From NCBI GenBank assembly GCA_009783145.1, contig WRHR01000003.1:23019-87018 (forward strand): 64,000 nucleotides of DNA. Reading direction: 5' to 3'. Positions 28,723-64,000 of the stretch are shown piece after piece. Under the pieces are notes generated by a model. It was not told the origin of the DNA. It made no database searches and saw only the letters and a program-made list of their open reading frames with translations. Origin of the DNA: Alphaproteobacteria bacterium (GTDB lineage Bacteria; Pseudomonadota; Alphaproteobacteria; Rs-D84). The position numbers were made by a program, and so were the translations under genes. Within the stretch, counting starts at the first letter, position 1, and the number at the start of each line of letters is the position of its first letter.

Positions 28723-29109
28723 CTATTTCTTTACAGTTATCTTCCCAACCGCGTCATAGCCAAAGTACTTGTTAATCCGCGCACGGAATTCCTCTGTTCT
28801 GTATGATAATTCCATTGCAAACGCGGGCTGCACCGCTTTCAGCGTTATGTTGAATTTTGTAGGGGCGCATTTTTGCGCCCTTTTAATCGGTCGCTTTGCG
28901 ACCGACGGGGCACAAGAATGTGCCCCTACACTACGTATCCCTTGCAGCTTCGCCAAACGCGCCAAGTCCGCGCCTATGATTTCGTTCCACCGCGCGGCCA
29001 AGTCTGCATCAGACGCGCGCACGCCGAATATTTTCAGCAAGCCTCCGAACGCCCCGCCCAAGCTTTGCGGGCGCGAAGTTCGGAGTGAAAGATTAGGTTT
29101 TGCTTTCAT
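28723..29109 (-). CDS. DciA-like (DUF721) protein with in-frame palindromic insertion
   Basis: C-terminal LKAVQPAFAMELSYRTEEFRARINKYFGYDAVGKITV fits the DUF721/DciA family; the segment VGAHSCAPSVAKRPIKRAQKCAPT is encoded by hairpin element F. Confidence 0.5.
   Translation of the reverse strand: MKAKPNLSLRTSRPQSLGGAFGGLLKIFGVRASDADLAARWNEIIGADLARLAKLQGIRSVGAHSCAPSVAKRPIKRAQKCAPTKFNITLKAVQPAFAMELSYRTEEFRARINKYFGYDAVGKITVKK
28858..28930. repeat. Family F nested-hairpin element in-frame in dciA-like gene
   Basis: tgtaggggcgcatttttgcgccc..ggtcgctttgcgacc..ggggcacaagaatgtgcccctaca. Confidence 0.75.
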
Positions 29110-29165
29110 TTACGATTTACGATTTACGATTTAGGGAGTCAAATCTTAAATCGTAAATCTTAAAT
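29108..29165. repeat. Family J (acgattt)n palindrome with GGGAGT core, copy J1
   Basis: ttacgatttacgatttacgatttaGGGAGTcaaatcttaaatcgtaaatcttaaatt; abuts the dciA-like start codon and the mltA stop. Confidence 0.8.
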
Positions 29166-30241
29166 TATTTATATGGTTTCGGCATCAGGATATACATCTC
29201 GCCTTGGCTATGCTGGCCGTGGGCATAGCTATACGCCTCGTCCCCTGTGCCAAAGAATATATCCCCTCGTATCCAGCCTTTTATCGCGCCGCCCGTATCC
29301 TGGGCCACCATCAGCCTCTGGAACTTGCGCCCGTCCACCGACAGGTTAGTGTTCACATAAACCGGCAGGCCGACCGTATATATGCTGTCGTCCACCGCGA
29401 TGCTGCGGATTTTGGATAACGGAGTCCCGATTTTTCCAATCACGTCATGCGCGGTCGCAACCTGGAAATATACATACCGCGGGTTGTTGTATATGACTTC
29501 CTTTGCCAGCGCGGGATTCTTTCTAAGATGCGCCCAAACCGCCTCGCTGGAATAGCCGCCTTCCGGACGGATTCCGCGCTGTTTCAGTTGCTCTCCGATT
29601 GATTTGAACGGCAAGTCGTTGACCGCGGCAAAATTCAGCTTTACTTTAGTCCCGTCCTCCAGCTTCAGCATTCCGCTGCCTTGGATTTGGATATTTTGCA
29701 CATCGACTATGTTTGCCCAATAAAGAACTCTGCCTATCTTATTTTCTACGATGGTTTTCTTGTCCACGCCCTTAAAGCTCCGGCCTTCGAGGGGGACGCC
29801 CATCAGCGGCTCGTTGCACTGGGCGGTTTTCGTCCTGCACGCGGGTATTATGGGAGAATAGTATCCCGTATAGGTTCCCGCAGGCTTTCCGGCTTCGTCG
29901 TGGATTTTATACGGCTGAAAATGAGACTCGAACCAGTCGCGCGCGACGGCGGGACTTGCCGATTCCGACGGCATAAATTGGCATTTTTCTTCCAACAATT
30001 TGCGGTCCGGAATGACCTTTCCCTGATATTGGAGCTTTGCTTTGCAAGTATTCCTGAATGCCGCCAAAGCATAGCGGTGGTCGTCTTCGCGCCAGCCCGG
30101 CAACTGGGAATACGAGACTTTGTGAAGATTAGAAGGCTTGACGGAGTTATCGCCGGTCTTATAATCGCGCGACTCGGTCAAATCGCCGCATCCGGCCAGA
30201 AGTCCAAAAACTATAAATACCGGCAAATAACACTTTTTCAT
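29165..30241 (-). CDS. mltA: Membrane-bound lytic murein transglycosylase A
   Basis: Lipobox LLAGCG, MltA N- and 3D-domain motifs (YYSPIIPA, IAVDDSIY, GTGDEAY). Confidence 0.85.
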   Translation of the reverse strand: MKKCYLPVFIVFGLLAGCGDLTESRDYKTGDNSVKPSNLHKVSYSQLPGWREDDHRYALAAFRNTCKAKLQYQGKVIPDRKLLEEKCQFMPSESASPAVARDWFESHFQPYKIHDEAGKPAGTYTGYYSPIIPACRTKTAQCNEPLMGVPLEGRSFKGVDKKTIVENKIGRVLYWANIVDVQNIQIQGSGMLKLEDGTKVKLNFAAVNDLPFKSIGEQLKQRGIRPEGGYSSEAVWAHLRKNPALAKEVIYNNPRYVYFQVATAHDVIGKIGTPLSKIRSIAVDDSIYTVGLPVYVNTNLSVDGRKFQRLMVAQDTGGAIKGWIRGDIFFGTGDEAYSYAHGQHSQGEMYILMPKPYK

Positions 30242-30322
30242 AAAAAACTCTCCAGTCACTTGAAAATTAATTCCTACGCGCTATAATACCATAAAACCAC
30301 CGCCGAACAAAGGAGCAATCGC

Positions 30323-30748
30323 ATGGCAAAGTTTCAACTTATATCTCAATTCTTGAAGGATTTCTCTTTCGAGTCGCCAAATGTGCCGGAGCTGTTCTTC
30401 AAGCAGGAAAACGGACAGGCGAAAATGGACATCAACCTGGATATCCAGATAAAAGGCACCGAAAACAACATTTATATGGTCGACCTGCTGGTAAAGCTGC
30501 ACTCTAAGCTGGAACAGGGCGACAAGTCGATATTTATGATCGAATCCACATACTCGGGCCTGGTGCAGATTGAAAAGTCGGAAAATGAAGAGGACTTGAA
30601 GAAAACCCTGCTGATAGAGGTTCCGAACCTGTTGTTCCCGGCGATAAGGGCGATTATCCTGCGTATGACGGGCGAAAGCGGATTCCCGCCGTTCGCATTG
30701 CAGCCGATTGATTTTCAAAAGCTGTATGAAGAAAAGAACGCAAAATAA
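30323..30748 (+). CDS. secB: Protein-export chaperone SecB
   Basis: MAKFQLISQFLKDFSFESPN and overall SecB length and profile; terminator follows. Confidence 0.85.
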   Translation: MAKFQLISQFLKDFSFESPNVPELFFKQENGQAKMDINLDIQIKGTENNIYMVDLLVKLHSKLEQGDKSIFMIESTYSGLVQIEKSENEEDLKKTLLIEVPNLLFPAIRAIILRMTGESGFPPFALQPIDFQKLYEEKNAK

Positions 30749-30776
30749 AAACCGGGCTTTGCCCGGTTTTTATTTT
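30747..30776 (+). terminator. Rho-independent terminator after secB
   Basis: aaaaccgggctttgcccggtttttatttt. Confidence 0.75.
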
Positions 30777-30780
30777 GCGT

Positions 30781-30893
30781 TCTTTTCAGAGTGTTCGCTC
30801 GCTTCGCGCGCAGAGTAGAAGATTAAGAGAGTATCTATAACTCTACTACTCTCTTACTCTGATTTTGCGAAGCAAAATCGTTACTCTTGTTCT
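30781..30893. repeat. Family A element, copy A3
   Basis: cagagtagaagattaagagagtatctataactctactactctcttactctg plus gcgaagc hairpins. Confidence 0.8.
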
Positions 30894-31829: not shown

Positions 31830-33410
31830 ATGAACATGTATCAGTTTCTGGAATCGGCCGTATCGGAGGTACCGAACGACCTGTTTCTTACGCGCGAAAA
31901 GATAACTTACGCGCAGTTCAACGATTTGGTGAAAAAGCGCGCCGCGACCTTGGCCCGTATGGGCGTAAAGAAAGGCGACGCTGTCGGAATCCTTTCGCAT
32001 AATATATGGGAGTTCCCCCTGTCATTGTTCGCAATCTGGTATCTGGGCGCCTCGGTCCTGATGCTGGACACGAACCTTACTCCGTACGAGTATGACAATA
32101 TGACAAAGGTTACGGGGACCAAGCTGGTTCTGGCCGAAAAAAGCTTTTTCTATAAGTCCGCGGGATTCAAGTTCCACGACATTACAGAAAAAGACAAGGA
32201 AGCGGACCCGAAGCTAAAGCCGGCGCATGTGGAATCCGAAGACATCGCGACGCTGTCATTTACATCGGGTTCTACTGGAATGCCGAAAGTGGTGCCTTTA
32301 ACGCACTATAACCTGACGGAATGCGCGCTGTCGCTGGAGGATATGAGCGAATGGCTGAACCGCGGCGATACATTGTACGGATTTCTTCCGATGTACCATG
32401 TATTCGGCTTTGCGGTGGAGATTCTGGCGACGATTCATTACCGCGCGAACGTTCTGCTGCAAAGCACGATCAACCCAAAAGATATCCTGGACGACTTCAA
32501 AACATACCGGCCGCAGATTATTCCTGCGGTGCCAAGACTGTGGGAGGTCTTCCGCAACAAGATTATCGACGGGCTAAAGCAGAAAAGGCTTTGGTGGCTG
32601 GCGTCATTCGTCCTGAAATTCGGGCCGTTCCTTAAAAAAATCGGGCTCGGGTTCTTGGTGCGGAAAATTCAAGAGCCTGTGCTGGCGGTATTCGGCGGAA
32701 GGGCGCGCCTGTTAATAGGAGGCGGCGCGGCTGTAAAGCCAGAGGTGGAAACTTTTTACGAGCGCCTGGGGCTGACCTTTATACAAGGATATGGTCTGAC
32801 TGAAACAGTGGGGCCGATTTGTATATCCAAGCCTGGCAAATGCCGCCTTCCGTTCGCATTCGGGGGACCGATTACGAACAACGAGTGCGAAATCCGCGGA
32901 AAGAACGCGGAAGGCATCGGGACATTGTGGATGCGCGGGCACCAGGTGTTCGGCGGATACATGAATAACCCGGAAGCAAATTCGGAATCGTTTGATGAAA
33001 GGGGTTTCTTCAACACAGGTGACTTGGTGTCGATGGATTGCAATGGAGAATTGCATTTTCATGGACGTCAAAAGCAGGTGATTGTGCTGGATTCGGGAAA
33101 GAACGTGTATCCGGACGAACTGGAGGCATTGTTCATATTGATTCCTGGCGTAAAGAATGTTGCGGTGTTTGAGCATACTGTCAAAGACAAAACCGTGGCT
33201 TACGGCGTGTTTCAGGTTGAAGAAGGCATGACTTTTGAGAAGTTGGAAAAGGCGGTGGCCATCGCGAATAAAAAGGTGGCGAGTTACAAGTGGGTCACGC
33301 ATTTTGCGATGACGACCAAGGATCTGCCGCTGACCAGCACTCAGAAGATAAAGCATCATGTGGTGCGCGAGCGTCTGATTGCCGGCGAATATCCGACGAA
33401 ACATAATTAA
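31830..33410 (+). CDS. AMP-dependent acyl-CoA synthetase/ligase
   Basis: FTSGSTGMPKVV AMP-binding motif, GYGLTET, C-terminal lid. Confidence 0.8.
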   Translation: MNMYQFLESAVSEVPNDLFLTREKITYAQFNDLVKKRAATLARMGVKKGDAVGILSHNIWEFPLSLFAIWYLGASVLMLDTNLTPYEYDNMTKVTGTKLVLAEKSFFYKSAGFKFHDITEKDKEADPKLKPAHVESEDIATLSFTSGSTGMPKVVPLTHYNLTECALSLEDMSEWLNRGDTLYGFLPMYHVFGFAVEILATIHYRANVLLQSTINPKDILDDFKTYRPQIIPAVPRLWEVFRNKIIDGLKQKRLWWLASFVLKFGPFLKKIGLGFLVRKIQEPVLAVFGGRARLLIGGGAAVKPEVETFYERLGLTFIQGYGLTETVGPICISKPGKCRLPFAFGGPITNNECEIRGKNAEGIGTLWMRGHQVFGGYMNNPEANSESFDERGFFNTGDLVSMDCNGELHFHGRQKQVIVLDSGKNVYPDELEALFILIPGVKNVAVFEHTVKDKTVAYGVFQVEEGMTFEKLEKAVAIANKKVASYKWVTHFAMTTKDLPLTSTQKIKHHVVRERLIAGEYPTKHN

Positions 33411-33440
33411 AAACGCGGGCAAAGCCCGCGTTTTTAATTA
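33410..33440 (+). terminator. Rho-independent terminator after acyl-CoA synthetase gene
   Basis: aaaaacgcgggcaaagcccgcgtttttaatt. Confidence 0.75.
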
Positions 33441-33563
33441 GAGTAGTAGAGTAAGAGAGTAAGAGAGTAAAAGAGTAAATAATATCTATAACTCTACTAC
33501 TCTCTTACTCTGCAAACGCAAAGCGTTTGCGTTACTCTGCGAGCGAAGCGAGCGCTACTCTCA
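33440..33563. repeat. Family A element, copy A4 (supplies tsaE C-terminus and stop)
   Basis: agagtagtagagtaagagagtaagagagtaaaagagtaaataatatctataactctactactctcttactctg plus gcaaacgcaaagcgtttgc and gcgagcgaagcgagcgc. Confidence 0.8.
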
Positions 33564-33972
33564 ATTTTCTGCCGCCCTCAAACTCCGTAATAAAAATATG
33601 AATAGTATTGGCGGGCAGGAAATTGGTGGCAATCTCCGGCCATTCTATCAAGGTAATATCATTTGCAATCGCATGCGACAGACCAATTTCTTCCAATTCC
33701 GAAACATCGGTGATGCGATAAAGGTCAAAATGGGAAATACATTTGCCATTTGCCATTTGCCATTTGCCTTCGTATGTCTGAACCAAGGTAAAGGTAGGAC
33801 TCGGCACGACGGTATCCGCGCCGCATAGGGTCTGAATAATCGCGCGCGCAATCTCGGACTTTCCCATGCCCAAGTCGCCATGCAGGGCCACCACACACGG
33901 AGCATGCAGAGTTTTCGCAAACTCCCCCGCCCACGCGCGCGTTTCATCAATGTTTTTTAGAATTATTTCCAC
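33532..33972 (-). CDS. tsaE: tRNA threonylcarbamoyladenosine biosynthesis protein TsaE
   Basis: GDLGMGKSEIARAI P-loop, SPTFTLVQTYE, HFDLYR. GTG start. The GKWQMANGK segment is encoded by a (caaatgg)n repeat and the last 11 aa plus stop by an A element. Confidence 0.85.
   Translation of the reverse strand: MEIILKNIDETRAWAGEFAKTLHAPCVVALHGDLGMGKSEIARAIIQTLCGADTVVPSPTFTLVQTYEGKWQMANGKCISHFDLYRITDVSELEEIGLSHAIANDITLIEWPEIATNFLPANTIHIFITEFEGGRKLRVALASLAE
33738..33772. repeat. Family C (caaatgg)n tract in-frame in tsaE
   Basis: acatttgccatttgccatttgcc encodes GKWQMANGK on the minus strand. Confidence 0.8.
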
Positions 33973-34020
33973 TCTTTTACTCTCCTACTCTTTCACTCTG
34001 CCGGCGAAGCCGGCGTTACT
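33962..34020. repeat. Family A half-element, copy A5 (between uvrB stop and tsaE GTG start)
   Basis: actcttttactctcctactctttcactctgccggcgaagccggcgttactc. Confidence 0.7.
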
Positions 34021-44107: not shown

Positions 44108-46684
<2,577 letters not shown>

Positions 46685-46693
46685 AGATTCAAA

Positions 46694-47269
46694 ATGAAAT
46701 TCAAATTACTATATTTCGGAGAGCTTCGGACCAACCCGAAAAAGCGGTCCCAGCACATCGCAAACATACGCATGCAGTTCCATCCTCAGTTGAAAAAGCT
46801 GGTTGAAAACAGCCCCTGGAACAACATGCAGAAATATATGATGCCGGGGGCCACGAAAAGCCCGATTTCAACTCGGCATGTCGGCGGAATCGACTGGAAT
46901 CCTATTATTACGCCGAACCTGAAGCTGTTGGCGGAATTGGACGTATTGCTGATGCATCCGCAGATAGTGGGACTGGGACGCACCGATATAGACAACAGAA
47001 TGAAGACTTTGCTGGACGCATTGCGCAGCCCTCAGAACGAGCATGAAATAGGCGAGAACACGCCGAAAAATATGGGGCCGATTTATACTCTGCTGGACGA
47101 CGACCATCTGGTTACGAAAATATCGGTTAATACATCGCACTTGCTGGCGCCGCAAATGTTGGGGACCCGGCTGCAAGCCGACGACGGCGAAGAAAAGGTG
47201 TTTTTGCTGATAGATGTGAATGTAAGGGTGGAAGAAGGGAATTTGGAGAATTTGCCGTTTATGGTGTAA
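46694..47269 (+). CDS. Hypothetical protein
   Basis: Start at MKFKLLYF; the upstream ORF-track extension is repeat I2-derived. Confidence 0.4.
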   Translation: MKFKLLYFGELRTNPKKRSQHIANIRMQFHPQLKKLVENSPWNNMQKYMMPGATKSPISTRHVGGIDWNPIITPNLKLLAELDVLLMHPQIVGLGRTDIDNRMKTLLDALRSPQNEHEIGENTPKNMGPIYTLLDDDHLVTKISVNTSHLLAPQMLGTRLQADDGEEKVFLLIDVNVRVEEGNLENLPFMV

Positions 47270-47285
47270 AAAATCCGGCGCTTGC

Positions 47286-47413
47286 CGGATTTTTTAGAGT
47301 AGAAGAGTAACGCCGGCTTCGCCGGCAGAGTAAGAGAGTAGTAAAGTATTAGATTACTCTTTAACTCTCTTACTCTTCTACTTTGCAAACGCGAAGCGTT
47401 TGCGTTACTCTGG
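47286..47413. repeat. Family A element, copy A6
   Basis: agagtagaagagtaacgccggcttcgccggcagagtaagagagtagtaaagtattagattactctttaactctcttactcttctact plus gcaaacgcgaagcgtttgc. Confidence 0.8.
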
Positions 47414-48445: not shown

Positions 48446-49372
48446 CTATATCTCCAACTTTCTAGCGCCCAGCTCCGGCACGATTCGCGGAACCAGTCCT
48501 GTAAGAACACTACCCGGACCGACCTCTATTGTTTCCGTAATGCCCAGCGCGGGAAGCGCCAAAACAGTCTCGCGCCAGCGCACGCCATGCGTAATTTGAT
48601 AAACAAGAGCTTCTTTTATTTCCGCCGGGTCCGACATAGGCGCGGCAGTCTTGTTTGAAATCAAGGGCACCGCCGGCGCGCGCATTTCAATCTTATCCAA
48701 TGCTTCGCGCATCTCTATTGCAACCGGTTCCATCAATCTTGAATGAGGCGGCACGGAAAGCGGCAGCAGCATGGCGCGCTTCGCGCCCATATCGCGCGTA
48801 ATCTCCATCGCGCGCAGTATAGTCCCCTCGCCCCCGGAAATCACAACCTGGCCCGGAGCGTTGTCGTTCGCCACATCCGCGACATTATAATGGTCATTGC
48901 GGCCGGCCTCTTCTTCAATTTGCTGCTCGGCCGTCTTGCAAGCTGTTGCCACCTGCTCTATTCCCAAGCCCATTATGACAGCCATGGCGCCTTTGCCCGC
49001 CGGGACCGCGCGCTGCATTGCGGCGCCGCGCAGGCGCAAAAGTTTCGCCGTGTCCGTAACGCTTAAAGCCCCCGCCGCGCACAGCGCGGTATATTCGCCC
49101 AAGGAATGCCCCGCGACGAACTTCACATCATCCATCGTTAATTTCGCCGCTTTCAGCATCGCGATTGAAACGGCGAAAATCGCCGGCTGAACGTTCGCGG
49201 TCAGCGTTAATTCTTCCATAGGGCCGTTGAAAACAATCTCGGACAATTTCTGTCCCAGCGCGGAATCCACTTCATCAAAAACATCGCGCGCTATCGGATA
49301 ATTGCCGTACAGGTCCTTGCCCATGCCGACGGCTTGCGACCCTTGGCCCGGGAAAATCAAAATCGATGACAT
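48446..49372 (-). CDS. fabD: Malonyl CoA-ACP transacylase FabD
   Basis: FPGQGSQ, GHSLGEYTAL active-site Ser, 308 aa. Confidence 0.9.
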   Translation of the reverse strand: MSSILIFPGQGSQAVGMGKDLYGNYPIARDVFDEVDSALGQKLSEIVFNGPMEELTLTANVQPAIFAVSIAMLKAAKLTMDDVKFVAGHSLGEYTALCAAGALSVTDTAKLLRLRGAAMQRAVPAGKGAMAVIMGLGIEQVATACKTAEQQIEEEAGRNDHYNVADVANDNAPGQVVISGGEGTILRAMEITRDMGAKRAMLLPLSVPPHSRLMEPVAIEMREALDKIEMRAPAVPLISNKTAAPMSDPAEIKEALVYQITHGVRWRETVLALPALGITETIEVGPGSVLTGLVPRIVPELGARKLEI

Positions 49373-49405
49373 TTGTCGCCTCTTTTGTGGGATTTATAGC
49401 AAATA

Positions 49406-49468
49406 AATTAGCGATTAGCAATTAGCAATTATCAGGGAGTTTAATTGCTAATCGCTAATTGATAATTG
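49406..49468. repeat. Family G (aattagc)n palindrome with GGGAGT core, copy G1
   Basis: aattagcgattagcaattagcaattatcaGGGAGTttaattgctaatcgctaattgataattgctaatt. Confidence 0.8.
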
Positions 49469-49499
49469 CTAATTAAAAAACCGGCAAAGCGCGGATTTT

Positions 49500-50537
49500 T
49501 TATGAAAGCGCTGCCGTTATCTGGTCCTGCATCTCGAACGTGCCGAAGACGACCCATGCGATGACTGCGGAAACCAGCAGTATTCCGACCGAGTTCAAGA
49601 TATTTGACATGCTTTCCATCTTGCGGACGGATGCGTCCAGATAGTCGTTCGCTATCTTTTCAAGGTTCGCGTCAAAGCCGTTCATATCGGCGTAAATGGC
49701 CAGGTCGCCGATGATTTCGTCATTCGGGAAACGCGTTCCTGTGTTCTCCAAGGCCCGCCCCAGATTGTCGCCGTTGGCGATAAATCCTATCGCGCGCTCC
49801 AGAATATCCTTCAGGTATTTGCCGGAATTATCGGCCAGCATTTTCATAGACATAGGCAAACTGCCGCCCGCGGCAACCATAGCCGCCAAAGACATCATCC
49901 AGCCGACGGATACGGAAATCTTGTACATAGACCAAGGCGGAATCGCATCGAACATGACGCGCAAGCGCCCCGACCAATTCGTGAACGAAGCCCAAATCAG
50001 AGCAATCAGGGCAATAAACGCGGCGATTATAATCAGAAAGTAGTTATTGGAAAAATCGGATACGGCGATGAGCGTTGCCGCCGCGCCGCGCCAAGCTATA
50101 TCGCCTCCGGCCGCTTCCCTTAACGGGGGCACCAGATATAATCCGACCGCCATGATTATGACAAAGGTCAACGCCAGCAAAACCGACGGATACAAAATCG
50201 CGTCCATCATGGCTTTCTTAATTTTGCTGATTCCTTCGCCGACGCGAACCACGTTATCCAAAGCGATGGAAAGCTTTGAAATATCGCCGACGGCCAACAT
50301 AAGAGTTTCGTTGCCGGGCGACCATCCGCGCGTGGCGTCGGGAAAAGGCAGACCGCGCTCCAGATTCTCGCGCCAGGCATTGATGACCAGCGCGAAAGGC
50401 TCGTTCGGCTTGTCCCCGTTCTTGCTTTCGGTCGCATAAACCCTGTCCAGCGCATCCATCAAAGTGAAGTTATTACGCAGCATTGATGCCAGCTTGCGAT
50501 ATAAATTCATCCGCTTGTCCGTATCGAAGCCGAACAT
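49500..50537 (-). CDS. GspF/PilC/TadB-family platform protein (short form)
   Basis: LYRKLASMLRNNFTLMDALDRV matches the T2SSF domain signature; three TM helices; about 345 aa from the internal Met, with the TTG-start extension lying in repeat G2. Confidence 0.55.
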   Translation of the reverse strand: MFGFDTDKRMNLYRKLASMLRNNFTLMDALDRVYATESKNGDKPNEPFALVINAWRENLERGLPFPDATRGWSPGNETLMLAVGDISKLSIALDNVVRVGEGISKIKKAMMDAILYPSVLLALTFVIIMAVGLYLVPPLREAAGGDIAWRGAAATLIAVSDFSNNYFLIIIAAFIALIALIWASFTNWSGRLRVMFDAIPPWSMYKISVSVGWMMSLAAMVAAGGSLPMSMKMLADNSGKYLKDILERAIGFIANGDNLGRALENTGTRFPNDEIIGDLAIYADMNGFDANLEKIANDYLDASVRKMESMSNILNSVGILLVSAVIAWVVFGTFEMQDQITAALS

Positions 50538-50576
50538 GAATTTCGCGTATAAGATATCAAGTTTCGTTGCCAAAAC

Positions 50577-50737
50577 AATTAGCAATTAGCAATTAGCAAT
50601 TAGCAATTAGCAATTTTTTCATTACTTATGCTTATTACCAACCAACTAATTTTTCCTTTATTTGTTTTAAAGCAACCAACTTTCTCACAACCGCAATCTA
50701 AATAATTGCTAATTGCTAATTGCTAATTGCTAATTAA
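50577..50737. repeat. Family G (aattagc)5 ... (gctaatt)5 palindrome with about 90-bp spacer, copy G2
   Basis: Left arm 50577-50614 overlaps the GspF-like 5' end; right arm 50705-50737 overlaps the GspE-like stop; adjacent actcccggc (GGGAGT on the other strand). Confidence 0.8.
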
Positions 50738-52377
50738 TACACTCCCGGCTGGTCCAGTAGTCCCACCCAGCGTTCCAGCTCCTCAACGCCGATGATGCCT
50801 TTCAGCATCAGCTCTATCGCCGCCTCTTTCAACGTGCGCCCGTCCAGTTCTTCCAGCCAATATTTTACCGCATCCGCGGAATTCCCCGCAAGCGCCAGTT
50901 CTAGGAATCTATTGTCTGTGATGATAATCTCGCCCGCTTTTATGCGCCCTATGGTGCCCTTTTCCGCGCAGTACTTGCATCCGTCGCCGCGGAAGTAAGT
51001 CTGGCGCAGGCCTGTTTCTCCGAACGCTTCCAGCACGCGCTTGTACGCGGGATGATCGGGAAAATTAACCAGCATTTTTCTGCACTGCGGGCAAAGCTTG
51101 CGGAACAAGCGCATCGACACCAGCCCGCGCATCATGGTTTCGTCTTTCAGCTTGAACCCTTCCACGCCCATATCCAAAAGGCGGGTAAGCGCCGCCATTG
51201 CGGAATTGGCATGCAAGGTGGTCCAAACGCTGTGCCCCGACAATGCCCCCTTTACCGTCAATTGAGCCGCGCTTAAGGTGCGGATTTCGCCGACCATCAT
51301 CACATCCGGATCGCTGCGCAGGGCGGATTGCAAAGCTTCGGTGAATTTCTCTTCCCGCTGCTCTTCGTTGTTCGCATTAACGACTGGAATCTGATGGCTG
51401 CCGAAAATGCGCCTTTCCGCCGGGTCTTCGATCGTAATCAGATTGATTTCATAATCGCGCTCTTTCAGCATAAGCGACATATTCTGGAAAAGAGTCGTGG
51501 ACTTTCCGCTGCTGGTCGGACCCGCGACCACGATAAGGCCGGTCGGGAAAGACCGCATGCGCATCAAAAGATCGCGCTCGTACTCGCCGAATTCCTGCTC
51601 GGTCTTTATGGTCTCGGCCGGGTTGTCGTACAGCAGGCGCATCACCACATAGCGCGATCCGAACGCGATCGGATTGAACTGCATTCTAATGCCCATAATG
51701 CCGGCCGGAAGATACAGGTCCCGCGTGCCGCGCAAAGGAGTGCGCCCGTCTTTCTGCGCGCTCTGATACTCGTTCTGCGCATAGTTGGAATTGGACTGGT
51801 CGGCGGATGCGAATGCTGCGCGGACGAAAGACTCGCCCCATTGAGAGTTGTATTCCAACACGGTCTGCATGCTGCCGTCCATGCGGAAATAAACGGTGGT
51901 CTGGTCGGCGACCTCTATATGAATATCGGATACTTTCAGGCTTGCGGCGCGCGCGATTATATCAACGAAGTCCTTTTGCATCTGGTTATCGTAATCCAAG
52001 GGCGCGCGTGATGCGATGCCCGCGAACTTCGCGTCGTTAAATTTGTATATGCCGGAAATAAGGCCCAGATCGCTGTAAAAAGGCTCTTTGGCCGTGCGCT
52101 TTTCTTTTTTAAGCAGCTCCAGGAACGAAATCACCCGCCCGTCATAGCGGTGAGTGCGAGAAATGACGATTTCGCCGCCGGAAAAGTACGCGAGCAAGTT
52201 CTGCGTATCTCTTGCCACTTCCAGCGCGCCGCCATTCGCGGTCAGCAAGGCGTTTGTGTTTGAGAACAAATACTCGATGATTTCTTTTTGCGTCGACGCG
52301 CCGATATTATTCGGCACGCTTGGGGCCGCGCTGCGCGCGGGCGAAGGAGTATTTTCAAGATTCTTTCGTGCTGACAT
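50734..52377 (-). CDS. GspE/PilB-family secretion/assembly ATPase
   Basis: GPTSSGKSTTL Walker A, MVGEIR, TLHANSA, C-terminal CPQC..x24..CKYC zinc motif. Confidence 0.8.
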   Translation of the reverse strand: MSARKNLENTPSPARSAAPSVPNNIGASTQKEIIEYLFSNTNALLTANGGALEVARDTQNLLAYFSGGEIVISRTHRYDGRVISFLELLKKEKRTAKEPFYSDLGLISGIYKFNDAKFAGIASRAPLDYDNQMQKDFVDIIARAASLKVSDIHIEVADQTTVYFRMDGSMQTVLEYNSQWGESFVRAAFASADQSNSNYAQNEYQSAQKDGRTPLRGTRDLYLPAGIMGIRMQFNPIAFGSRYVVMRLLYDNPAETIKTEQEFGEYERDLLMRMRSFPTGLIVVAGPTSSGKSTTLFQNMSLMLKERDYEINLITIEDPAERRIFGSHQIPVVNANNEEQREEKFTEALQSALRSDPDVMMVGEIRTLSAAQLTVKGALSGHSVWTTLHANSAMAALTRLLDMGVEGFKLKDETMMRGLVSMRLFRKLCPQCRKMLVNFPDHPAYKRVLEAFGETGLRQTYFRGDGCKYCAEKGTIGRIKAGEIIITDNRFLELALAGNSADAVKYWLEELDGRTLKEAAIELMLKGIIGVEELERWVGLLDQPGVY

Positions 52378-52452
52378 TTACGATTTACGATTTGCGATTT
52401 ACGAATTACGATTTATGGGGAGTCAAATCGTAATTCGTAAATCGTAAATTTT
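52378..52452. repeat. Family J element, copy J2
   Basis: tttacgatttacgatttgcgatttacgaattacgatttatgGGGAGTcaaatcgtaattcgtaaatcgtaaatttt; lies between the GspE-like start and the PilP-like stop. Confidence 0.8.
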
Positions 52453-52455
52453 AAA

Positions 52456-53064
52456 TTATTCACCGGCATAAACGCCTAAAACAGTAATCTCGCCGCCTTT
52501 GGATAGAACCACGCCTTCGTCGATCGATACGGATTCAACGCGGTAGTCGTCCAGATTCTTGCCGACGGAAACTTTTCTTCTCTGCCCGTTGGTGACATCC
52601 TCGACGGTCGCGAACAGCTGGCGTCCTGCGCCTACGATTTCAATCAGGCGATATCTTTCGTTTATCGGGGACGGGGCAGGTTTGCTGGTCGCGGGAGCGC
52701 GTTCTGGCTGGCGGCTTTCCATGGACATCTTCTGCTGTTCCAACTTTTCCCTTTCCAGCTCCAGCCGCTGGCGTTCCAGCTCTATCGCGCCGGTCTGAGC
52801 CTGCGAAGCCCCGCTCATAGCGTCCATTTCGTTGCGGATGCGCACTTGCTCGGCCGCCAGGCGATCCATATCCAGTTGCAACTGAGCCCTTTCCTTTTCC
52901 AACTGCATCAGGATTTTTTCCTGCTCCAGGTCGGCGATCATCTGAAACAGCGACCCTTCCGGATTGTAATCCTCGACATCTTCCGCGGCGCGGACGCCAA
53001 TCGGCGAAATCGCCGCCAGTACTGCCAATAGCATTAGTTTATTTTGCATAGATTCTAACCTCAT
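52456..53064 (-). CDS. PilP/GspC-like periplasmic protein (signal peptide, coiled coil, C-terminal beta domain)
   Basis: Signal MLLAVLAAISPIGVRA, long Glu/Gln/Leu-rich coiled coil, C-terminal YRLIEIVGAGRQLFATVED...VSVGKNLDDYRVESVSIDEGVVL resembling PilP/GspC HR domains. Confidence 0.45.
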   Translation of the reverse strand: MRLESMQNKLMLLAVLAAISPIGVRAAEDVEDYNPEGSLFQMIADLEQEKILMQLEKERAQLQLDMDRLAAEQVRIRNEMDAMSGASQAQTGAIELERQRLELEREKLEQQKMSMESRQPERAPATSKPAPSPINERYRLIEIVGAGRQLFATVEDVTNGQRRKVSVGKNLDDYRVESVSIDEGVVLSKGGEITVLGVYAGE

Positions 53065-57912: not shown

Positions 57913-58273
57913 AACAAACTCTGCTTTAAGGGAAATATAGCAATAAGCCCAAAGGAATTCAACAAAAACGAAATCCGCCCGCTCGCCGATTCGTTGCTGT
58001 GGATTTTCATAGTAATTTAGTGCGTGTAATGCCCGGTTTCCTGGGACTTTTTTAGTGTTTAGCGAATAACAAAAAATACCTTGACCGAAAAATATTTCTT
58101 CTGTATAAAACAAGATAAAGGGGACCGATTTATAAAAAAATCAATCCCCTGAAACTGGGCGGTGTAATGGTGCCCAAGTGTGAACACTTCCACCTTACAC
58201 TGCCCAAGAGTACTTTGTCAAATGCAAATTTGATGAAGGTGTTTAACACATCATATAACCAAAAGGATAAAAA

Positions 58274-58504
58274 ATGGTGAGATGTAAAAGAACGTGGGGA
58301 TTAGAAATCCACCACAAACGCATTGATGGCGGAAATGACTTGGGTAATGCCCAAGTTTTATGCCAAAAATGCCACGAAAACACAAGCTCTTATGGCAGCC
58401 CAGACCATAAAACTCCGCCTGCGTTTAGCGAAGAAACAAAAAAAGCTGCGCTGAAACGTGCGGAGCATCGGTGCGAATGCACAAAGGGAGCTTGTTGTTT
58501 ATAA
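58274..58504 (+). CDS. HNH endonuclease
   Basis: LEIHHKRIDGGNDLGNAQVLCQKCH, a short stand-alone HNH motif; begins the AT-rich island; terminator follows. Confidence 0.7.
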   Translation: MVRCKRTWGLEIHHKRIDGGNDLGNAQVLCQKCHENTSSYGSPDHKTPPAFSEETKKAALKRAEHRCECTKGACCL

Positions 58505-58505
58505 C

Positions 58506-58536
58506 AAATAACCGCCCAAATGGGCGGTTTTGTTTT
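58506..58536 (+). terminator. Rho-independent terminator after HNH gene
   Basis: aaataaccgcccaaatgggcggttttgtttt. Confidence 0.7.
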
Positions 58537-59062
58537 GAACTTGGTTGGGGCAGTTAGACAAGTTTCTAACTGACCAGTCTGATGAACTGATAGATTTCAT
58601 AAATCAGTATAATCACTTTATGGAACTGCTATCCATAGAAGAACCAGAACTATTTGCTCTATACGGCGGAAACATTGGTGTTGAAAAATAATTCATTACG
58701 ATTTAATCCGATATTCCGAATTCCATTAAATCCACATATTTGACCCACAGACCTTCAGGTTATGAGTCCGATTATCAACAGTTCAGCAACCGTTCTTAAA
58801 TCACTTATTGCTCTGCAAGTGTTAGTTTTCAACGGTCATTATCAACCATTAGTGGAATTGTTCTATAAACCATTCTGATAACCATTCTATCAAACCCTAT
58901 GTAAAAACAGATTGTAGTTTGTTGAACCATTCTTAAAAGTGTTTCAAAAGAGTTAATTAACTGGACTTTGTTATATGGTTCCGCCAGGGTTAAGGGGTTG
59001 ATGAAACGATTTATGAAAAAGGAGATTGCTATGAACTTTTATTATGCTGAAATGGTTCGCAT

Positions 59063-60037
59063 CTATTGACCTTCGGAACTAATCACCGTTTTCCATACAT
59101 CTCTTTCTTTCGGAGTCAGTAAAACACAGTCATAATGCAACCCTTTCGGAGCATAGTCATTTACGATATAAAGGTTATTGCTATTTCTCTTATGTGCAGT
59201 TGCAAGTTTGCTGGTTATAACATTAGATTTTGTCGTAAATTCAAACGAACTACCGTCCTCAAAATAGACTTTTTCATAATAAGGCAAATCCGAACAATTA
59301 GTTTTAAGATTTTTCTTTTCATTATAATTAAAGTGCTGGTATCCAAATTTATATACATTTAGTTTCCCCATCTTGATTTTTTTAGAGTCTTTATACCTAT
59401 AAGTTTTTTCATTACTATATGAACCAAATATATTTACTTCACAAGAATTTTTGGTGAATGAGACCAAATACTCAAACGGAAGTTTCTTTGCTATAACTGC
59501 TTCAAGTGCTTCACGAGACCAACCGCCCTTGTTTTTAACTTCCTGTATAAATCTATCAGTATCCCCCACCGCACAGAAAAATAGTTTCTGCTTGCCTTCT
59601 TCTTTATCAAAAAATGCCATTGAACTTTTCGCAATCTTCTCCATTTCCTTCTTTTTGCACAATTCTTCTATGGCATCCCTTTTCTTCGGAGAGTATGAAG
59701 CAAACTTCCGTTTGAAATTATCAACATCTATAAGCAGGTCTCGTGGGTCTGTTTCTACAAACCCAACATCCACATAATTAAAGTTTCTTTGGGAAGAACT
59801 AATATCCATTTTTCGTTGGAAGTCCCTTTTGGGTTCAAAACCTTGTGCGACACCGCAGGGTATATCCACACCCCAGTCTTTCATAGATTTTTTGGAAATC
59901 TTATCAACCTCGTCTGTAAATAGATTGATTCCTACCGGGATAAGAACCACCGCAGATACACCGCCAATAATTGCATATTTGACGACATTTAATAATCCCG
60001 ACCACAAGGTCTTTATAGAACCCAGCATTTGTTTCAT
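59063..60037 (-). CDS. Membrane-anchored hypothetical protein
   Basis: N-terminal TM (YAIIGGVSAVVLIPVGINLF); AT-rich; no family recognised. Confidence 0.4.
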   Translation of the reverse strand: MKQMLGSIKTLWSGLLNVVKYAIIGGVSAVVLIPVGINLFTDEVDKISKKSMKDWGVDIPCGVAQGFEPKRDFQRKMDISSSQRNFNYVDVGFVETDPRDLLIDVDNFKRKFASYSPKKRDAIEELCKKKEMEKIAKSSMAFFDKEEGKQKLFFCAVGDTDRFIQEVKNKGGWSREALEAVIAKKLPFEYLVSFTKNSCEVNIFGSYSNEKTYRYKDSKKIKMGKLNVYKFGYQHFNYNEKKNLKTNCSDLPYYEKVYFEDGSSFEFTTKSNVITSKLATAHKRNSNNLYIVNDYAPKGLHYDCVLLTPKERDVWKTVISSEGQ

Positions 60038-60061
60038 TTTGGTTTCCTTTGAATTCCGTTT

Positions 60062-60958
60062 TTAGAACATATTTTTCAGTCCATTAAAAACTTCAAGTTC
60101 TTGCTTATCGCTGACAAGTTTCCAGACTGTTGGTATATTTCTATGCCCATTGTCTTTAACCTGTTCTCGACTCATTCTGCAGGACTTATTCAATATGTCA
60201 TTTAATTGGTCAATAGACCACGGGTCTGTATATGCAGATTCCATTTCTACGATACATTCGCCCGTTTTTTGATTATAAATAGTCTGAACAAATGACCTTT
60301 TCTTGCCACGACCAAATGGACAAGTTGTATCCACTCTTCCATCGGCAGTTTTACCATTATATTCACAATCTCTCAAATTGGGTTGAACCATATTTCCAAA
60401 AGTGCATTGTGAATCTTCTATGTATCTGGTAGTAGTGGACTTTTTAGTTTTAATTAGCGAATAAACAGTTTTGTTGATTGTGCAAGAGTATTGTCCTGTT
60501 TCGTTAAAACTCACCTCCAAATATCGTGTTTCCGATTTGTCTTCAAATTTGTAAATTAAATTGAGGATTTCGGGGACTTTTTCGCAAACAATGTCTTTTC
60601 CTGAAGTTTTGTTTGTTGGCACCTTTTCTTCAAAATAAGTAGGTCTTGTGTGCTTTATTATCTGATAACAAACCTTTGCGGAGTTTTGCTCTTGTTTTGC
60701 ATTACCTTCAATTTGCGAGTTGTCGTTTTTTGCTTCTTCTATCTTCTTATGGCACTCCGAATCCGAAAGATATTTTGTTTTCTTCTTTTTCTTTATTTTG
60801 CAATATTTCTCTTTCAAATCTGGGTCAATTTGCAACTTTTCACTTATAGTCGTATCGGTTGTAGGTGTTGATGGGGCAAGTGACTTCTGGGATTTCTTCG
60901 GACTACCACCACAAGCGACAAGTGCCAGCAGTGCTATCAGGATTGTAAGTTTTTTCAT
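60062..60958 (-). CDS. Cys-rich lipoprotein, hypothetical
   Basis: MKKLTILIALLALVACGG lipobox, about 14 Cys, Lys-rich low-complexity region. Confidence 0.45.
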   Translation of the reverse strand: MKKLTILIALLALVACGGSPKKSQKSLAPSTPTTDTTISEKLQIDPDLKEKYCKIKKKKKTKYLSDSECHKKIEEAKNDNSQIEGNAKQEQNSAKVCYQIIKHTRPTYFEEKVPTNKTSGKDIVCEKVPEILNLIYKFEDKSETRYLEVSFNETGQYSCTINKTVYSLIKTKKSTTTRYIEDSQCTFGNMVQPNLRDCEYNGKTADGRVDTTCPFGRGKKRSFVQTIYNQKTGECIVEMESAYTDPWSIDQLNDILNKSCRMSREQVKDNGHRNIPTVWKLVSDKQELEVFNGLKNMF

Positions 60959-61415
60959 TTTTTATCCTTTTGGATTTTTGTGCAAAAACCACCCTTCCAA
61001 CAGAAAGGTGGTCCAGGTTTTCCAAATCATCAAATGAGTGATTCCGTTGCCTTCGGCAATGCCTTATAACAACGGTGCCTGGACCATAAGGAACAGGCGA
61101 TAACGGTGTGAAAAGCACCATTATGCAAAAAATCGGATAAACGATGCTTTCACACCGCATTTGACGGGTTTGGAAATCCCGGAACCAATTATCCCTAATT
61201 GATTCAACCTAAATCATACTTAAAAACCTTGGAAATATCAACCAGAAACCTTAAATAATTTTCAGTTTCAAAATACTTATTTTAGTCGGGACTTGTGGAA
61301 GTTTTTTTGTATAAAATCTACCTAGATTGGCATTTGTTGCAATTTTTAGATTGAATAATTTGTAAAGTTTATTGTAAGGTTAAATTATAAAGAACAAGAC
61401 AAAAAAGCAGAACGA

Positions 61416-62087
61416 ATGCGAGTAAAAGACGGTATTATTATTGCCAATGCAGCGGATAAAATAAAAGCAGAATTGATAGATTTTCTGCTTGATTGCCATG
61501 ACAATTTTGACCTCATTGCCAACGAGACCCCTTTTTTGCAAAGCGAGCGAATGGCGGATATGATTGCTATTCGCAATGGCATAACAATGGGGTTTGAGAT
61601 AAAAAGCAATACAGACGACTTGCGGACTCTTTCCCAGCAATTGAGTGATTATACAAGGGTGTTTAATGCGGTTTATCTGGTATTTTCTGCAAAGTTTGCT
61701 GGCAGTCCAGAAATTGAAAAATTGCCCAAGACTATCGGTCTTTTTACTGTTGATACCGACAATAATCTAAAATTTCGCCGCAAAGCGGCAACAAAGGTTA
61801 TACTGGATAAATCCGCGATGCTTTCCTTGTTATGGAGAAAGGATTTGGAGACTCTTGCTCCCAGCAAGAAGAAAGCGGACTTTGACGATTTACGAGATTA
61901 TGTGCTGAGAAACTGCCCAATAAAGACCATTCAAGAACAAATTATAAAATCACTGCAATCTCGCTATGGGAATGGATATAAGTTGATGATACACGAAAGG
62001 GGCGAGAAAACTACCATAGAAGACCTGTTTTACATTACAGGTCTAAAAAAGCACCAGATTGTCTTCGCAGATACAAGCATTGCATAG
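61416..62087 (+). CDS. PD-(D/E)xK nuclease-fold protein (sce7726/MmcB-like)
   Basis: ADMIAIRNGITMGFEIKS gives a D..x12..E-x-K arrangement; AT-rich island. Confidence 0.35.
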   Translation: MRVKDGIIIANAADKIKAELIDFLLDCHDNFDLIANETPFLQSERMADMIAIRNGITMGFEIKSNTDDLRTLSQQLSDYTRVFNAVYLVFSAKFAGSPEIEKLPKTIGLFTVDTDNNLKFRRKAATKVILDKSAMLSLLWRKDLETLAPSKKKADFDDLRDYVLRNCPIKTIQEQIIKSLQSRYGNGYKLMIHERGEKTTIEDLFYITGLKKHQIVFADTSIA

Positions 62088-63165
62088 TCATATATAGATT
62101 TGACCGCACAGCAATCCAATATGCTGGTGCTTTGCCTTCTGGGGCACCGTTTGCCTTTTCAGCAATTCGTCTGTCCCCCTCGGTTAAAAACTCAGTTATA
62201 GGTGCATATTCGGACGAACCAATAACCTGCTTTGCTAATCCTACATAATCCGAACTGGTATTTCGCCCATTCCCTCGTCTAAACCAGTATTTTATGGGTT
62301 GCTTTGTTCGTTGGTCTCTTTCAATATAATCTATCCTTGCATACCATCCGGCACCACCCATTTCATATCTTTTGGGATATATGGATGAGAAATCCCCGTG
62401 AAAGACTTTGCTTCCTAATTCGGTCTTTACACAATCAGAGACTTGATTTTCAGTAATATCAATACTGCCCGCAGTTTTGCTTATACTACTAACCGATGCA
62501 GGGAAACTTGAAGAAACAGGTATAAGTGCTTTTATATTTGAAATATCTATACCAGATAATCCGCTCTTAATTTCATTTTCCTTATAGTCCCGAACAAAGT
62601 CAAAATCAAGAATAACAAACAATTTGCCGTTGCCAATAATGTCAGTAATAAATTTGATAACCTGTGGCAAAGATGGTGCAAAAGCAGGCAATTTTACAGC
62701 AATGTAATCAAAATTAGCATTTAATACTTGTATTTGTGCTTGAACCTCTGTCATATGGGCAGCATTAAATTGAATGACAGGTATAACCTGCTTCTTGAAT
62801 TTATCGTTCTTTTGTAAGAAATCAGACCAAGATTGATACCCGTTTGACGGGTCTAATAATCCGCCACCTTTACTGCTAAGACCGTCATATTTCAATGAAG
62901 CATCGTCTGTTATATCCAGAATGAACCGCCTGTCGTCCATAAAATCTAATATTTTTTGGATTTTGTTGTATATATCGCCCTGTCTTCTTTTGCCCCGCAA
63001 ATTTTCGTCTTTACAATTTTTTGTATAGGTGTATCCCAACTCCCCTGTCATTTCAATTATAGGTAAAATGTTATCTTTGACTGTATCGTTCAGGGCATCA
63101 TAAGCATTCACCTCTGACGGGCGAGTTTTTAAGATTGGGAAATAGCAGTATCTTGGCATACTCAA
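62035..63165 (-). CDS. Hypothetical protein, partner of ImmA-like peptidase (possibly sce7725-like)
   Basis: 376-aa ORF, 4-nt overlap with the upstream ImmA/IrrE gene; convergent with and 3'-overlapping the PD-(D/E)xK gene. Confidence 0.35.
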   Translation of the reverse strand: MSMPRYCYFPILKTRPSEVNAYDALNDTVKDNILPIIEMTGELGYTYTKNCKDENLRGKRRQGDIYNKIQKILDFMDDRRFILDITDDASLKYDGLSSKGGGLLDPSNGYQSWSDFLQKNDKFKKQVIPVIQFNAAHMTEVQAQIQVLNANFDYIAVKLPAFAPSLPQVIKFITDIIGNGKLFVILDFDFVRDYKENEIKSGLSGIDISNIKALIPVSSSFPASVSSISKTAGSIDITENQVSDCVKTELGSKVFHGDFSSIYPKRYEMGGAGWYARIDYIERDQRTKQPIKYWFRRGNGRNTSSDYVGLAKQVIGSSEYAPITEFLTEGDRRIAEKANGAPEGKAPAYWIAVRSNLYMTMQCLYLRRQSGAFLDL

Positions 63166-63737
63166 TACTCCGATATTAGACCAAGTTTATAAGCACGATA
63201 GCGGACCGCCGGTGTGGATAAATTAAACTTGTCTGCCAGTTTCTTTACTGTATTCTCTCCCCTTTTAATACAATCGTTTACAATCGTTTCAGGCATCAAT
63301 AAGTTTGAAGCAAAATCATTTGCCTCCCGTTCATCTGGATTTGTATTCTCGTCCCTGAAAAATATCAGGTCGTGCTGAAATCTTCCATTTGCATATTTTT
63401 CGCGGTGTTTTACATAATGTCCTAATTCGTGAGCGATTGTAAATCTTTGTCGCTGTTCGCTTTCATATTGATTTATATAAATACACCACTGGTTATCTAT
63501 CTGTTCTAGAAAACCAGAAGCGGATTTACCCAAATCCTTTTTTATCAATTTAATACCAAATATCTTTTCAACAACACTGGCAATATCCAATGGGTCGGTT
63601 TTTATTTTGAGTTCTTTCGCTTTTGCCCAGATTTCAGAGACAGACATTGTTTGAGGTGTTTGTTTCTTTGCCACAGAACGGGAAGTGGCATTCCCGCCGG
63701 AGAGAAAGTTTTGCCAATTAGATAAGTCTGTTGCCAT
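63162..63737 (-). CDS. ImmA/IrrE-family metallo-endopeptidase
   Basis: HELGHYVKH HEXXH motif plus EREANDFASNLLMP downstream. Confidence 0.7.
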   Translation of the reverse strand: MATDLSNWQNFLSGGNATSRSVAKKQTPQTMSVSEIWAKAKELKIKTDPLDIASVVEKIFGIKLIKKDLGKSASGFLEQIDNQWCIYINQYESEQRQRFTIAHELGHYVKHREKYANGRFQHDLIFFRDENTNPDEREANDFASNLLMPETIVNDCIKRGENTVKKLADKFNLSTPAVRYRAYKLGLISEY

Positions 63738-63979
63738 TATCTCCCTCCTTTCTTTTTCGTGGTTGCTTTTTTCTTTGCTGCGGGTTTAGGTTTTATAGTC
63801 GCAGCAGCATCCTTCTGTATCTGCTCAATAATCTTATTTTTTGTTAGTTCATATTCTTGCGATATGAATCCACGGATTCGGGTTTCGTCTAATTCTTCTG
63901 CTACATAATCCGACAAGTTTGTTTTAAGATAATCCGCAACTTTCTTGTCAAAATATATGCCAAACCATTCGGATTGCAT
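63737..63979 (-). CDS. Small hypothetical protein with Lys/Ala/Pro-rich basic tail
   Basis: Start overlaps the ImmA stop (ATGA); C-terminal AAKKKATTKKKGGR tail. Confidence 0.3.
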   Translation of the reverse strand: MQSEWFGIYFDKKVADYLKTNLSDYVAEELDETRIRGFISQEYELTKNKIIEQIQKDAAATIKPKPAAKKKATTKKKGGR

Positions 63980-64000
63980 TTCTTCGTGAATGATTTTCCG

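Follow-up and report, generated by a model that had tools for sequence, protein, structure and literature searches.

Heptamer-array hairpins with a GGGAGT core at gene junctions of an alphaproteobacterium: candidate miniature S23p-type intervening elements

Introduction

The intervening sequence (IVS) in the 23S rRNA of Coxiella burnetii, which has been called a selfish element, contains an S23p open reading frame (ORF), is bounded by a 28-bp terminal inverted-repeat stem and is excised by RNase III (PMC4990558). Two to three tandem GACAGAT heptamers, in a copy number that varies among strains, precede its S23p start codon, and the S23p protein of Xanthomonas is cited as a homopentameric ring (PMC4990558). 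We analyzed a stretch of 64,000 nucleotides (contig WRHR01000003.1; hereafter the window) from an Alphaproteobacteria metagenome-assembled genome, in which four elements built of inverted tandem heptamers, G1, G2, J1 and J2, lie at gene junctions. We lean, with some reserve, towards reading G1, J1 and J2 as miniature, ORF-less S23p-type intervening elements whose GGGAGT core is the ribosome-binding leader of S23p; G2 would then belong to the same family and have no core.

The window elements resemble the S23p-type IVSs of C. burnetii and Leptospira (PMC4990558) in their long terminal inverted-repeat stem, in being net insertions, in their tandem heptamers and, among full-length relatives from other loci (L125, L150, L038 and L172–L180), in the S23p cargo. 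As for those IVSs, a selfish insertion would be tolerated by looping out of the transcript, and an RNase III substrate is predicted here from a perfect stem of at least 20 bp. Unlike the IVSs, all four elements lie between protein-coding genes, none being in 23S rRNA helix 25 or 45; the window copies have no ORF, their arms consist wholly of heptamer arrays, and many unit families occur per genome.

Heptamer repeats called STRR were reportedly described in cyanobacteria by Mazel et al. in 1990. The units of STRR1-3 are CCCCAGT, TTGGTCA and CAACAGT. The TAACTGA direct repeats studied by MacGregor in Beggiatoaceae, Cyanobacteria and Bacteroidetes lie about 1 nt before start codons and provide stop codons in all frames; the downstream genes often have no Shine-Dalgarno box, no protein partner was identified, only one inverted case (in the BOGUAY genome) was reported, and no link to S23p was made (PMC4679880). 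The elements analyzed here share with STRR and TAACTGA repeats a 7-nt unit in 2–6 copies, an intergenic position a few nucleotides from start codons, stops in all frames and the frequent absence of a Shine-Dalgarno box from the downstream genes. The phyla concerned are the same as those with S23p genes, and AACTGA-like units occur in the window, solely as hairpins at 36008 and 57137. Those repeats are direct, whereas inverted hairpin pairs are the rule here, and the G (AATTAGC) and J (ATTTACG) units differ from theirs.

Correia/NEMIS, REP/BIME and Rickettsia palindromic elements (RPE) are small, non-autonomous and hairpin-forming and are co-transcribed with flanking genes, and Correia stems are RNase III substrates; to our knowledge, none of them has tandem-heptamer arms. 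The window elements are likewise small, gene-less and hairpin-forming. REP/BIME elements are imperfect palindromes of 20–40 nt with a GTAG-type head and a RAYT; the window elements have no such head, and no transposase-like Pfam match was present among the flanking genes scanned. Instead of the 26-bp terminal repeats and TA duplication of the 100–155-bp Correia/NEMIS elements, the arms here are periodic and of variable length, which sets them outside that class. RPE are of fixed length and in frame within ORFs, whereas G1, G2, J1 and J2 are intergenic; the sole in-frame case is a CGAAACG palindrome in mnmE, which adds no length to the protein region. The comparison with these architectures that the initial annotation had suggested therefore placed the elements in none of the three classes, and sequence similarity was absent as well.

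Results and Discussion

The GGGAGT core recurs at hairpin centers

Arrays in the window were called with Tandem Repeats Finder (TRF) and by reading of the sequence. The G and J units are related through the common pattern AWTTASS. The initial annotation had assigned one layout, tandem heptamers followed by GGGAGT and the heptamers inverted, to all four elements; this description holds for G1, J1 and J2 and fails for G2, whose spacer has no GGGAGT. The nearest ACTCCC to G2, at 50741–50746, is outside its arm, within the last codons of the T2SSE/TadA ATPase gene (T2SSE).

GGGAGT is not enriched in the window as a whole (19 observed, 13.9 expected). When the window and L125, a locus from a relative, were taken together (85,638 nt), 5 of the 23 GGGAGT/ACTCCC sites fell within the 471 nt of hairpin centers, which comprise the loops and the inner edges of the arms. 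A count of 5 was reached in none of 20,000 random placements. The shared core is not due to chance and is a real but non-universal feature. It is found with four different arm families: besides the G and J arms, it occurs in L125 in the loop TGGGAGTTT of an AACTGAT hairpin (7943) and directly after TAATCTA-type arrays (20417). In the unrelated bacterium of L038 it appears as GGGGAGT with AATTACG arms. Across four arm families and three genomes its position is constant, directly 3' of the left arm, at the inner edge of that arm. The proposal that elements with different arms form a related family with a shared core is thus supported and extended to two more arm families in L125 and to L038. GGGAGT did recur in further copies, at the two L125 sites and in L038, although most copies are without it. 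The core-less copies in the window are G2 and families AACTGA, AGAGTAAG, CGAAACG, ATGGCAA, ACAGAGC and AAAGAAT. Hairpins of J type from other taxa (L030, L073, L077 and L006) are core-less too.

A scan of a genome collection with TTASSAWTTASSAWTTASSAWTTA returned cyanobacteria, Bacteroidota, Acidobacteriota and others, with no G or J copy from the same organism among the matches listed. The metagenome scan for the octamer family (ACTCTNCTACTCTCTTACTCT) yielded 30 loci, about half of them from relatives, with new unit families and no further G or J copy; viral contigs gave no match to the same pattern.

The initial annotation had considered that one recombinase or nuclease recognizes the core. 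In this explanation all hairpins, with their variable arms, would be mobilized by a recombinase, transposase or nuclease that recognizes or cleaves GGGAGT. The constant place of the core, its significant enrichment at hairpin centers and the dispersal of the same arm and loop pairs to non-orthologous sites would agree with such an enzyme. We nevertheless consider it quite unlikely, as most elements have no core, including the L125 hairpins that occupy the corresponding junctions and those of L030, L073 and L077, no transposase or recombinase gene lies beside any copy, and where an ORF exists the motif stands as its Shine-Dalgarno box.

S23p genes lie between inverted arrays

Octamer arrays (AAGTGTAT / CACTTATA) in L125 surround a 123-aa gene of Pfam family 23S_rRNA_IVP. 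This S23p gene has the leader TTGGAGTTTAGT directly before its ATG. Leader and L125 hairpin loop TGGGAGTTTAGT agree at 11 of 12 positions, and GGGAGTTTA is common to this leader, that loop and the G1 loop. An S23p homologue with 55% identity lies between (AACTAAC)n arms in L150. In L038, (AATTACG/AATTAGG)n arrays precede a further homologue, which has the leader GGGGAGTGGAAAG before its ATG and whose stop codon is directly followed by an ORF-less hairpin, AATTACGAATTAATAATT-GGGGAGTGAAA-ATTCGTAATTCGTAATT (AATTACG..CGTAATT). The GGGGAGT of J2 is identical to that of both the S23p leader and the hairpin loop of L038. The L038 hairpin is the J2 architecture beside its presumed parent. The S23p protein corresponds to TIGR02436, 'four helix bundle protein' (PF05635); among solved structures, PDB 2rld (E 2.5e-33) is the closest to it.

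S23p contexts were gathered through homologues, their contigs and annotated plasmids. Inverted tandem 7–8-mers were present on both sides of S23p in 15 of 16 independent loci, Pseudanabaena L181 being the only one without two-sided arrays. Inverted-match scores around S23p were 12–34, compared to a mean of 8.0 and a 99th percentile of 11 for 412 control segments. These loci belong to six phyla: Pseudomonadota, Bacillota, Bacteroidota, Cyanobacteriota, Spirochaetota and Chloroflexota. In L157 and L159, from relatives that are otherwise poor in arrays, arrays occur solely around S23p. G-type units are found in the S23p arms of Monoglobus L172 (AATTAGG/AATTGCT) and also of L169 and L038, and the exact J unit ATTTACG is found in those of Planktothrix L178. 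In the literature searched, the Coxiella IVS study was the sole paper linking S23p with heptamer arrays; the broader connection between S23p genes and inverted heptamer arrays appears to be undescribed, and is the more interesting result.

S23p sits between co-directional operon genes, namely HsdS and HsdR, Mod and RhuM-Res, and RND adaptor and permease; further sites are between VirB4 and the next gene, aldolase and alcohol dehydrogenase, and DUF1156 and HEPN. Restriction-modification, BREX-like, CRISPR-adjacent and RND efflux operons are among those that contain S23p genes. The site following VirB4 is orthologous in four alphaproteobacterial species (L125 2332–2703; L157, L159, L160). Its arms co-vary (AAGTGTAT/ATACACTT versus AAGTGTAA/TTACACTT), and the right arm lies within the signal-peptide codons of the next gene. 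The gene row at this site is VirB3-VirB4-S23p-207 aa, in which S23p is a conserved member of the type IV secretion (VirB) row. The idea that S23p is mere cargo of a recently mobile cassette is tempered by this locus, which is conserved in four species with co-varying arms.

The hairpins are lineage-specific insertions at stop-start junctions

Syntenic loci from three relatives (L124, L125 and L126), whose T2SSE is 85–88% identical, were compared with the window. Stop-start distances at the G1, G2 and J2 sites are 78, about 160 and 127 nt in the window, 12, 3 and 52 nt in L124, which has no heptamer arrays, and 3, 1 and 91 nt in L126, which has one small array pair. In L125 hairpins occupy all three of these junctions; their units are ATAGCTA/TAGCTTA (6/7 identical to the complement of G), and GGGAGT is absent. 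At the junction of the DUF374 and LpxK genes, the reading frames of relatives overlap as ATGA, and the window and L125 have an AACTGA-type hairpin 3–4 nt before the ATG, the first array unit of which provides a new stop codon. Hairpins of the window lineage are placed 0–4 nt from start codons. As relatives with the same gene order have short gaps or overlapping genes at these positions, we conclude that the hairpins arose by lineage-specific net insertion where a stop and a start codon meet. A target-site duplication is not definable, the ends being repetitive and A-rich and the flanks of J1 and J2 (..AATAA on one side, ATG on the other) being ambiguous.

The hairpin loop is not conserved at orthologous sites of the window and L125. 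Both contain AACTGA-type hairpins with the loop AGCTCTC or AACCAG, at sites that are not orthologous, indicating that loops travel with their arms. These results bear on an explanation that invokes no element at all, in which slippage during replication and intrastrand template switching would build the arrays in situ at A+T-rich junctions, GGGAGT being a coincidence or a stray AGAGTAAG-type unit. Such a process would account for the arrays in mnmE, which flank native sequence and replace rather than add residues, for arrays inside signal-peptide codons, for units shared by neighboring junctions (G1/G2 in the window; ATAGCTA at several L125 junctions), and for ACTCCC as a variant unit at 9625. 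Against it stand the result of the placement test, the match between hairpin loop and S23p leader in L125, the recurrence of units and loops at remote, non-orthologous loci and in other phyla, and net insertions of 55–160 nt at the junctions, and we regard it as unlikely.

Folding of the elements and orientation of the core

As RNA, G1, J1 and J2 form single hairpins of 23–29 bp with dG values of −21.6 to −36 kcal/mol. None of 200 shuffled sequences was equally stable (z −5.8 to −8.5). The element sequences are identical to the window in independent ENA and Logan assemblies, indicating that the hairpins are not assembly artefacts. An Rfam scan of the window identified two tRNAs only, with no family at the hairpins and no rRNA, and a promoter and terminator scan of 49200–52700 gave matches at or below the shuffled expectation.

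The other possibility raised in the initial annotation was a structured regulatory RNA motif. Under this explanation the ACUCCC loop would act in cis, either as an anti-Shine-Dalgarno-like loop that pairs with GGGAGU-type sites or as a protein-binding loop that controls the downstream cistron. In the sense transcript, the loops of all three core-containing window copies indeed read ACUCCC(C), and dciA and T2SSE have no Shine-Dalgarno box ahead of their ATG codons, at which the stems end. The orientation argument comes from two independent arm families only, and the core of L125 has the sense orientation (GGGAGU in RNA), such that orientation relative to transcription differs among genomes. Moreover, the same operon has no hairpin in L124 and L126, the L125 hairpins have other loops, and no Rfam family was detected. 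We consider this explanation improbable, the least probable of those considered here. A role of GGGAGT as the Shine-Dalgarno sequence of the flanking host genes was ruled out, as it is on the antisense strand in 3 of 3 window copies.

Proposed model of miniature S23p-type elements

According to the reading that we favor, in which G1, J1 and J2 are miniature S23p-type elements, full-length members would consist of a roughly 120-aa S23p four-helix-bundle gene behind a GGAG-type leader, placed between arms in which a 7-nt (sometimes 8-nt) unit is repeated in tandem, inverted from one arm to the other. GGGAGT would be the Shine-Dalgarno box of the S23p leader, left in the loop when the ORF is absent. 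The predicted transcript stem is A/U-rich and 23–29 bp long, and array units supply new stop codons. This stem may make insertion tolerable inside operons, either by RNase III processing, as in the Coxiella 23S IVS, and/or by translational coupling, in which downstream initiation would rely on ribosomes that open the stem while terminating. The arrays may grow, shrink and homogenize by slippage and arm-to-arm template switching; the CGAAACG palindrome of mnmE, with a native NKCD spacer in a region that is not lengthened, fits these processes.

Several observations weigh against this reading. GGAGT is present in the 30-nt leader of only 4 of 18 S23p genes, and any gene that uses a Shine-Dalgarno sequence would have some GGAG-like box. 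Neither an S23p gene nor a remnant was detected by tblastn and six-frame hmmsearch in the window plus L123, which comprise 71 kb of this genome. The arms of the S23p gene next to VirB4 in this clade are made of the octamer AAGTGTAA, not G or J, and the J unit of Planktothrix stands in the opposite sense upstream of S23p, i.e. arm polarity relative to the core is inconstant. Inverted arrays also flank native sequence (the NKCD motif of mnmE and the divergent promoter of gyrB), and hairpins therefore need not arise by ORF loss. It is possible that GGGAGT originated from another array family, as the copy at 9625–9630 is a variant unit of the octamer AGAGTAAG family. Finally, the consequences at the RNA level are all ones that we infer.

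Two further ideas were discarded. Long spacers, such as that of G2, were considered as decayed S23p genes, and a six-frame profile search of them was empty. A constant polarity of the arms relative to the core was dropped because the Planktothrix cassette has the opposite one.

A wider proposal, which we put forward tentatively and hold to be possible rather than probable, is that STRR, TAACTGA and similar repeats, a puzzle for decades, are the arms or footprints of one widespread, unrecognized class of intervening elements. Its autonomous form would be [heptamer array]-Shine-Dalgarno-S23p-[inverted array], pentameric S23p would bind 3–6 tandem heptamers and aid spread or maintenance, the rRNA IVS would be one special site, and the GGGAGT hairpins would be miniature non-autonomous derivatives at operon junctions. 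If true, three phenomena, i.e. heptamer repeats at start codons, the orphan S23p/TIGR02436 family and rRNA intervening sequences, would come together in one element class. S23p/TIGR02436 comprises thousands of genes with no known function; binding of heptamer arrays would be a testable role for it and could explain why S23p genes lie in the middle of restriction-modification, efflux and type IV secretion operons. It would also mean that operons tolerate inserts of 60–160 nt exactly between stop and start codons, with the insert folding away. In practical terms, the arrays shift annotated starts (T2SSF), themselves encode signal peptides and segments of proteins, and cause breaks in metagenome assemblies.

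Positions of the elements relative to genes

The coordinates of the elements and of the adjacent genes are given in Table 1.

Table 1. Elements G1, G2, J1 and J2 and the genes that border them (window coordinates)
Feature	Position	Strand	Remarks
G1 left arm (AATTAGC)3.7	49406–49431	+	TRF and sequence
G1 loop TCAGGGAGTT	49432–49441	+	GGGAGT at 49435–49440; operon sense (minus) strand reads ACUCCC
G1 right arm (TAATTGC)4.7	49442–49474	+	TRF
G2 left arm (CAATTAG)5.7, 100% matches	50576–50615	+	TRF and sequence
G2 spacer, 87 nt, A+T-rich	50616–50702		no GGGAGT, no S23p remnant
G2 right arm (TAATTGC)4.7, 100% matches	50703–50735	+	overlaps T2SSE stop codon (50734–50736)
J1 left arm (ATTTACG)3.7	29108–29133	+	adjoins dciA ATG (29107–29109, minus strand)
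J1 core GGGAGT	29134–29139	+	J1 loop is AGGGAGTC
J1 right arm (AAATCTT/AAATCGT)	29141–29167	+	inverted array 29141–29165; mltA stop codon (29165–29167) in its end
J2 left arm (ATTTACG)5.7	52376–52415	+	overlaps T2SSE ATG (52375–52377)
J2 core GGGGAGT (G+GGGAGT)	52417–52423	+	J2 loop is ATGGGGAGTC
J2 right arm (AAATCGT)3.6 and degenerate units	52425–52458	+	inverted array to 52449/56; holds stop codon of 197-aa gene (52456–52458)
DciA	28723–29109	-	
MltA	29165–30259	-	
FabD	48446–49372	-	
T2SSF-family protein	49500–50573/50585	-	
T2SSE/TadA ATPase	50734–52377	-	
197-aa gene	52456–53049	-	

The placement of the elements in the initial annotation was confirmed: G2 and J2 adjoin the stop and start codons of the GspE-like T2SSE gene, both overlapping them, G2 covers the annotated 5' end of the GspF-like T2SSF gene, and J1 occupies the entire gap from the mltA stop codon to the dciA ATG. 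The degenerate last units of J1 and J2 hold the stop codons of the upstream genes, and stop and start codons are opposite each other at the foot of the stem in J1, J2 and the 57137 hairpin. The N-terminus of T2SSE at the ATG overlapped by J2 is MSARKNL, which is kept in relatives. The annotated TTG start of T2SSF (50585) falls inside the left arm of G2. Since its relatives begin MATKLD, the true start is probably the TTG at 50573–50571, directly at the end of the G2 arm. The T2SSF start was altered from ATG to TTG in the window lineage.

Ahead of fabD, TGCTATAAAT..CCCAC.AAGAGG is common to the window (49372–49405) and L125 (12839–12915). The right arm of G1 (49442–49474) gives TTGCTA at 17 nt upstream of a TATAAA, itself kept ahead of fabD in L125. 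TTGCTA is possibly an array-derived -35 box; the consensus promoter scan did not include it among its matches.

Other array families and features of the window

At least 10 heptamer or octamer families are present in the window, and G and J are two among many; units include TTTGCTC, CACGAAT, ACAGAGC, AAAGAAT, CGAAACG, ATGGCAA, AACTGAG, AATTAGC, ATTTACG and the octamer AGAGTAAG. Most families are inverted pairs with a 3–16-nt loop or a 45–125-nt spacer.

The in-frame palindrome of mnmE (22889–24265, minus strand), at 23174–23285, is (CGAAACG)4.4-52 nt-(CGCGTTT)4.3. Its 52-nt spacer encodes the native, essential NKCD motif and its arms encode ETRNAKRETR and RVSRFAFRVS, in a region no longer than in homologues. 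Relatives have odd, variable segments at the positions of the two arms. The N-terminal domain of MnmE (window 24100–24200) contains an extra G+C-rich segment (VPLLWRGGPKGRGGL...) common to the window and the genome of L125; MnmE is 428–436 aa long in relatives without the segment and 458–469 aa with it. A G+C-rich 20-bp hairpin is found at 19433–19494 of L125. This segment and this hairpin may represent a second, non-heptamer kind of insertion.

Inverted (CGCGAAA)/(CGCGTCT) arrays at 46506–46683 stand on both sides of the 120 nt that separate gyrB from the gene at 46694 and form their divergent promoter region, and as a result both 5' untranslated regions carry the same array just ahead of the Shine-Dalgarno box. 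Other heptamer arrays encode the hydrophobic core of signal peptides (window 2892–2923 and 6146–6176; L152 701–733; L125 2716–2752; also L157 and L160); in the window these are MKKFALCSLLFALCACG in a Peripla_BP_6 lipoprotein (2883–4448) and MKNKIFILYSLFFILF in an ORF at 5712–6191. An (ACAGAGC)/(TCTGTGC) palindrome at 5478–5595 lies within the first 94 annotated residues of an RluA-type pseudouridine synthase ORF (4745–5719), whose annotated start may be too far upstream, since the Pfam domain begins at residue 95.

The octamer family has six copies per 64 kb (8159–8231, 9597–9652, 30817–30863, 33440–33511, 33970–33999 and 47327–47382). The order of its parts runs from AGAGTA through a G+C-rich mini-hairpin, (AGAGTAAG)n, TATCTATA and the inverted array to a second G+C hairpin (GCAAACGC..GCGTTTGC), which GTTACTCT follows, and the element is also found in about 15 JGI metagenome contigs. 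Ordinary G+C-cored hairpins that stand between A-runs and T-runs, at 30731–30787, 13188–13226, 28272–28311, 33400–33444 and 47262–47301, resemble bidirectional terminators and are distinct from the heptamer hairpins.

Across 58000–64000 the G+C content falls from about 0.50 to 0.37 and most ORFs have no Pfam match, Beta_protein (PF14350) at 62035–63165 being an exception. The contig that ENA has for this organism ends at 59048, and this region is probably a genomic island or strain-variable.

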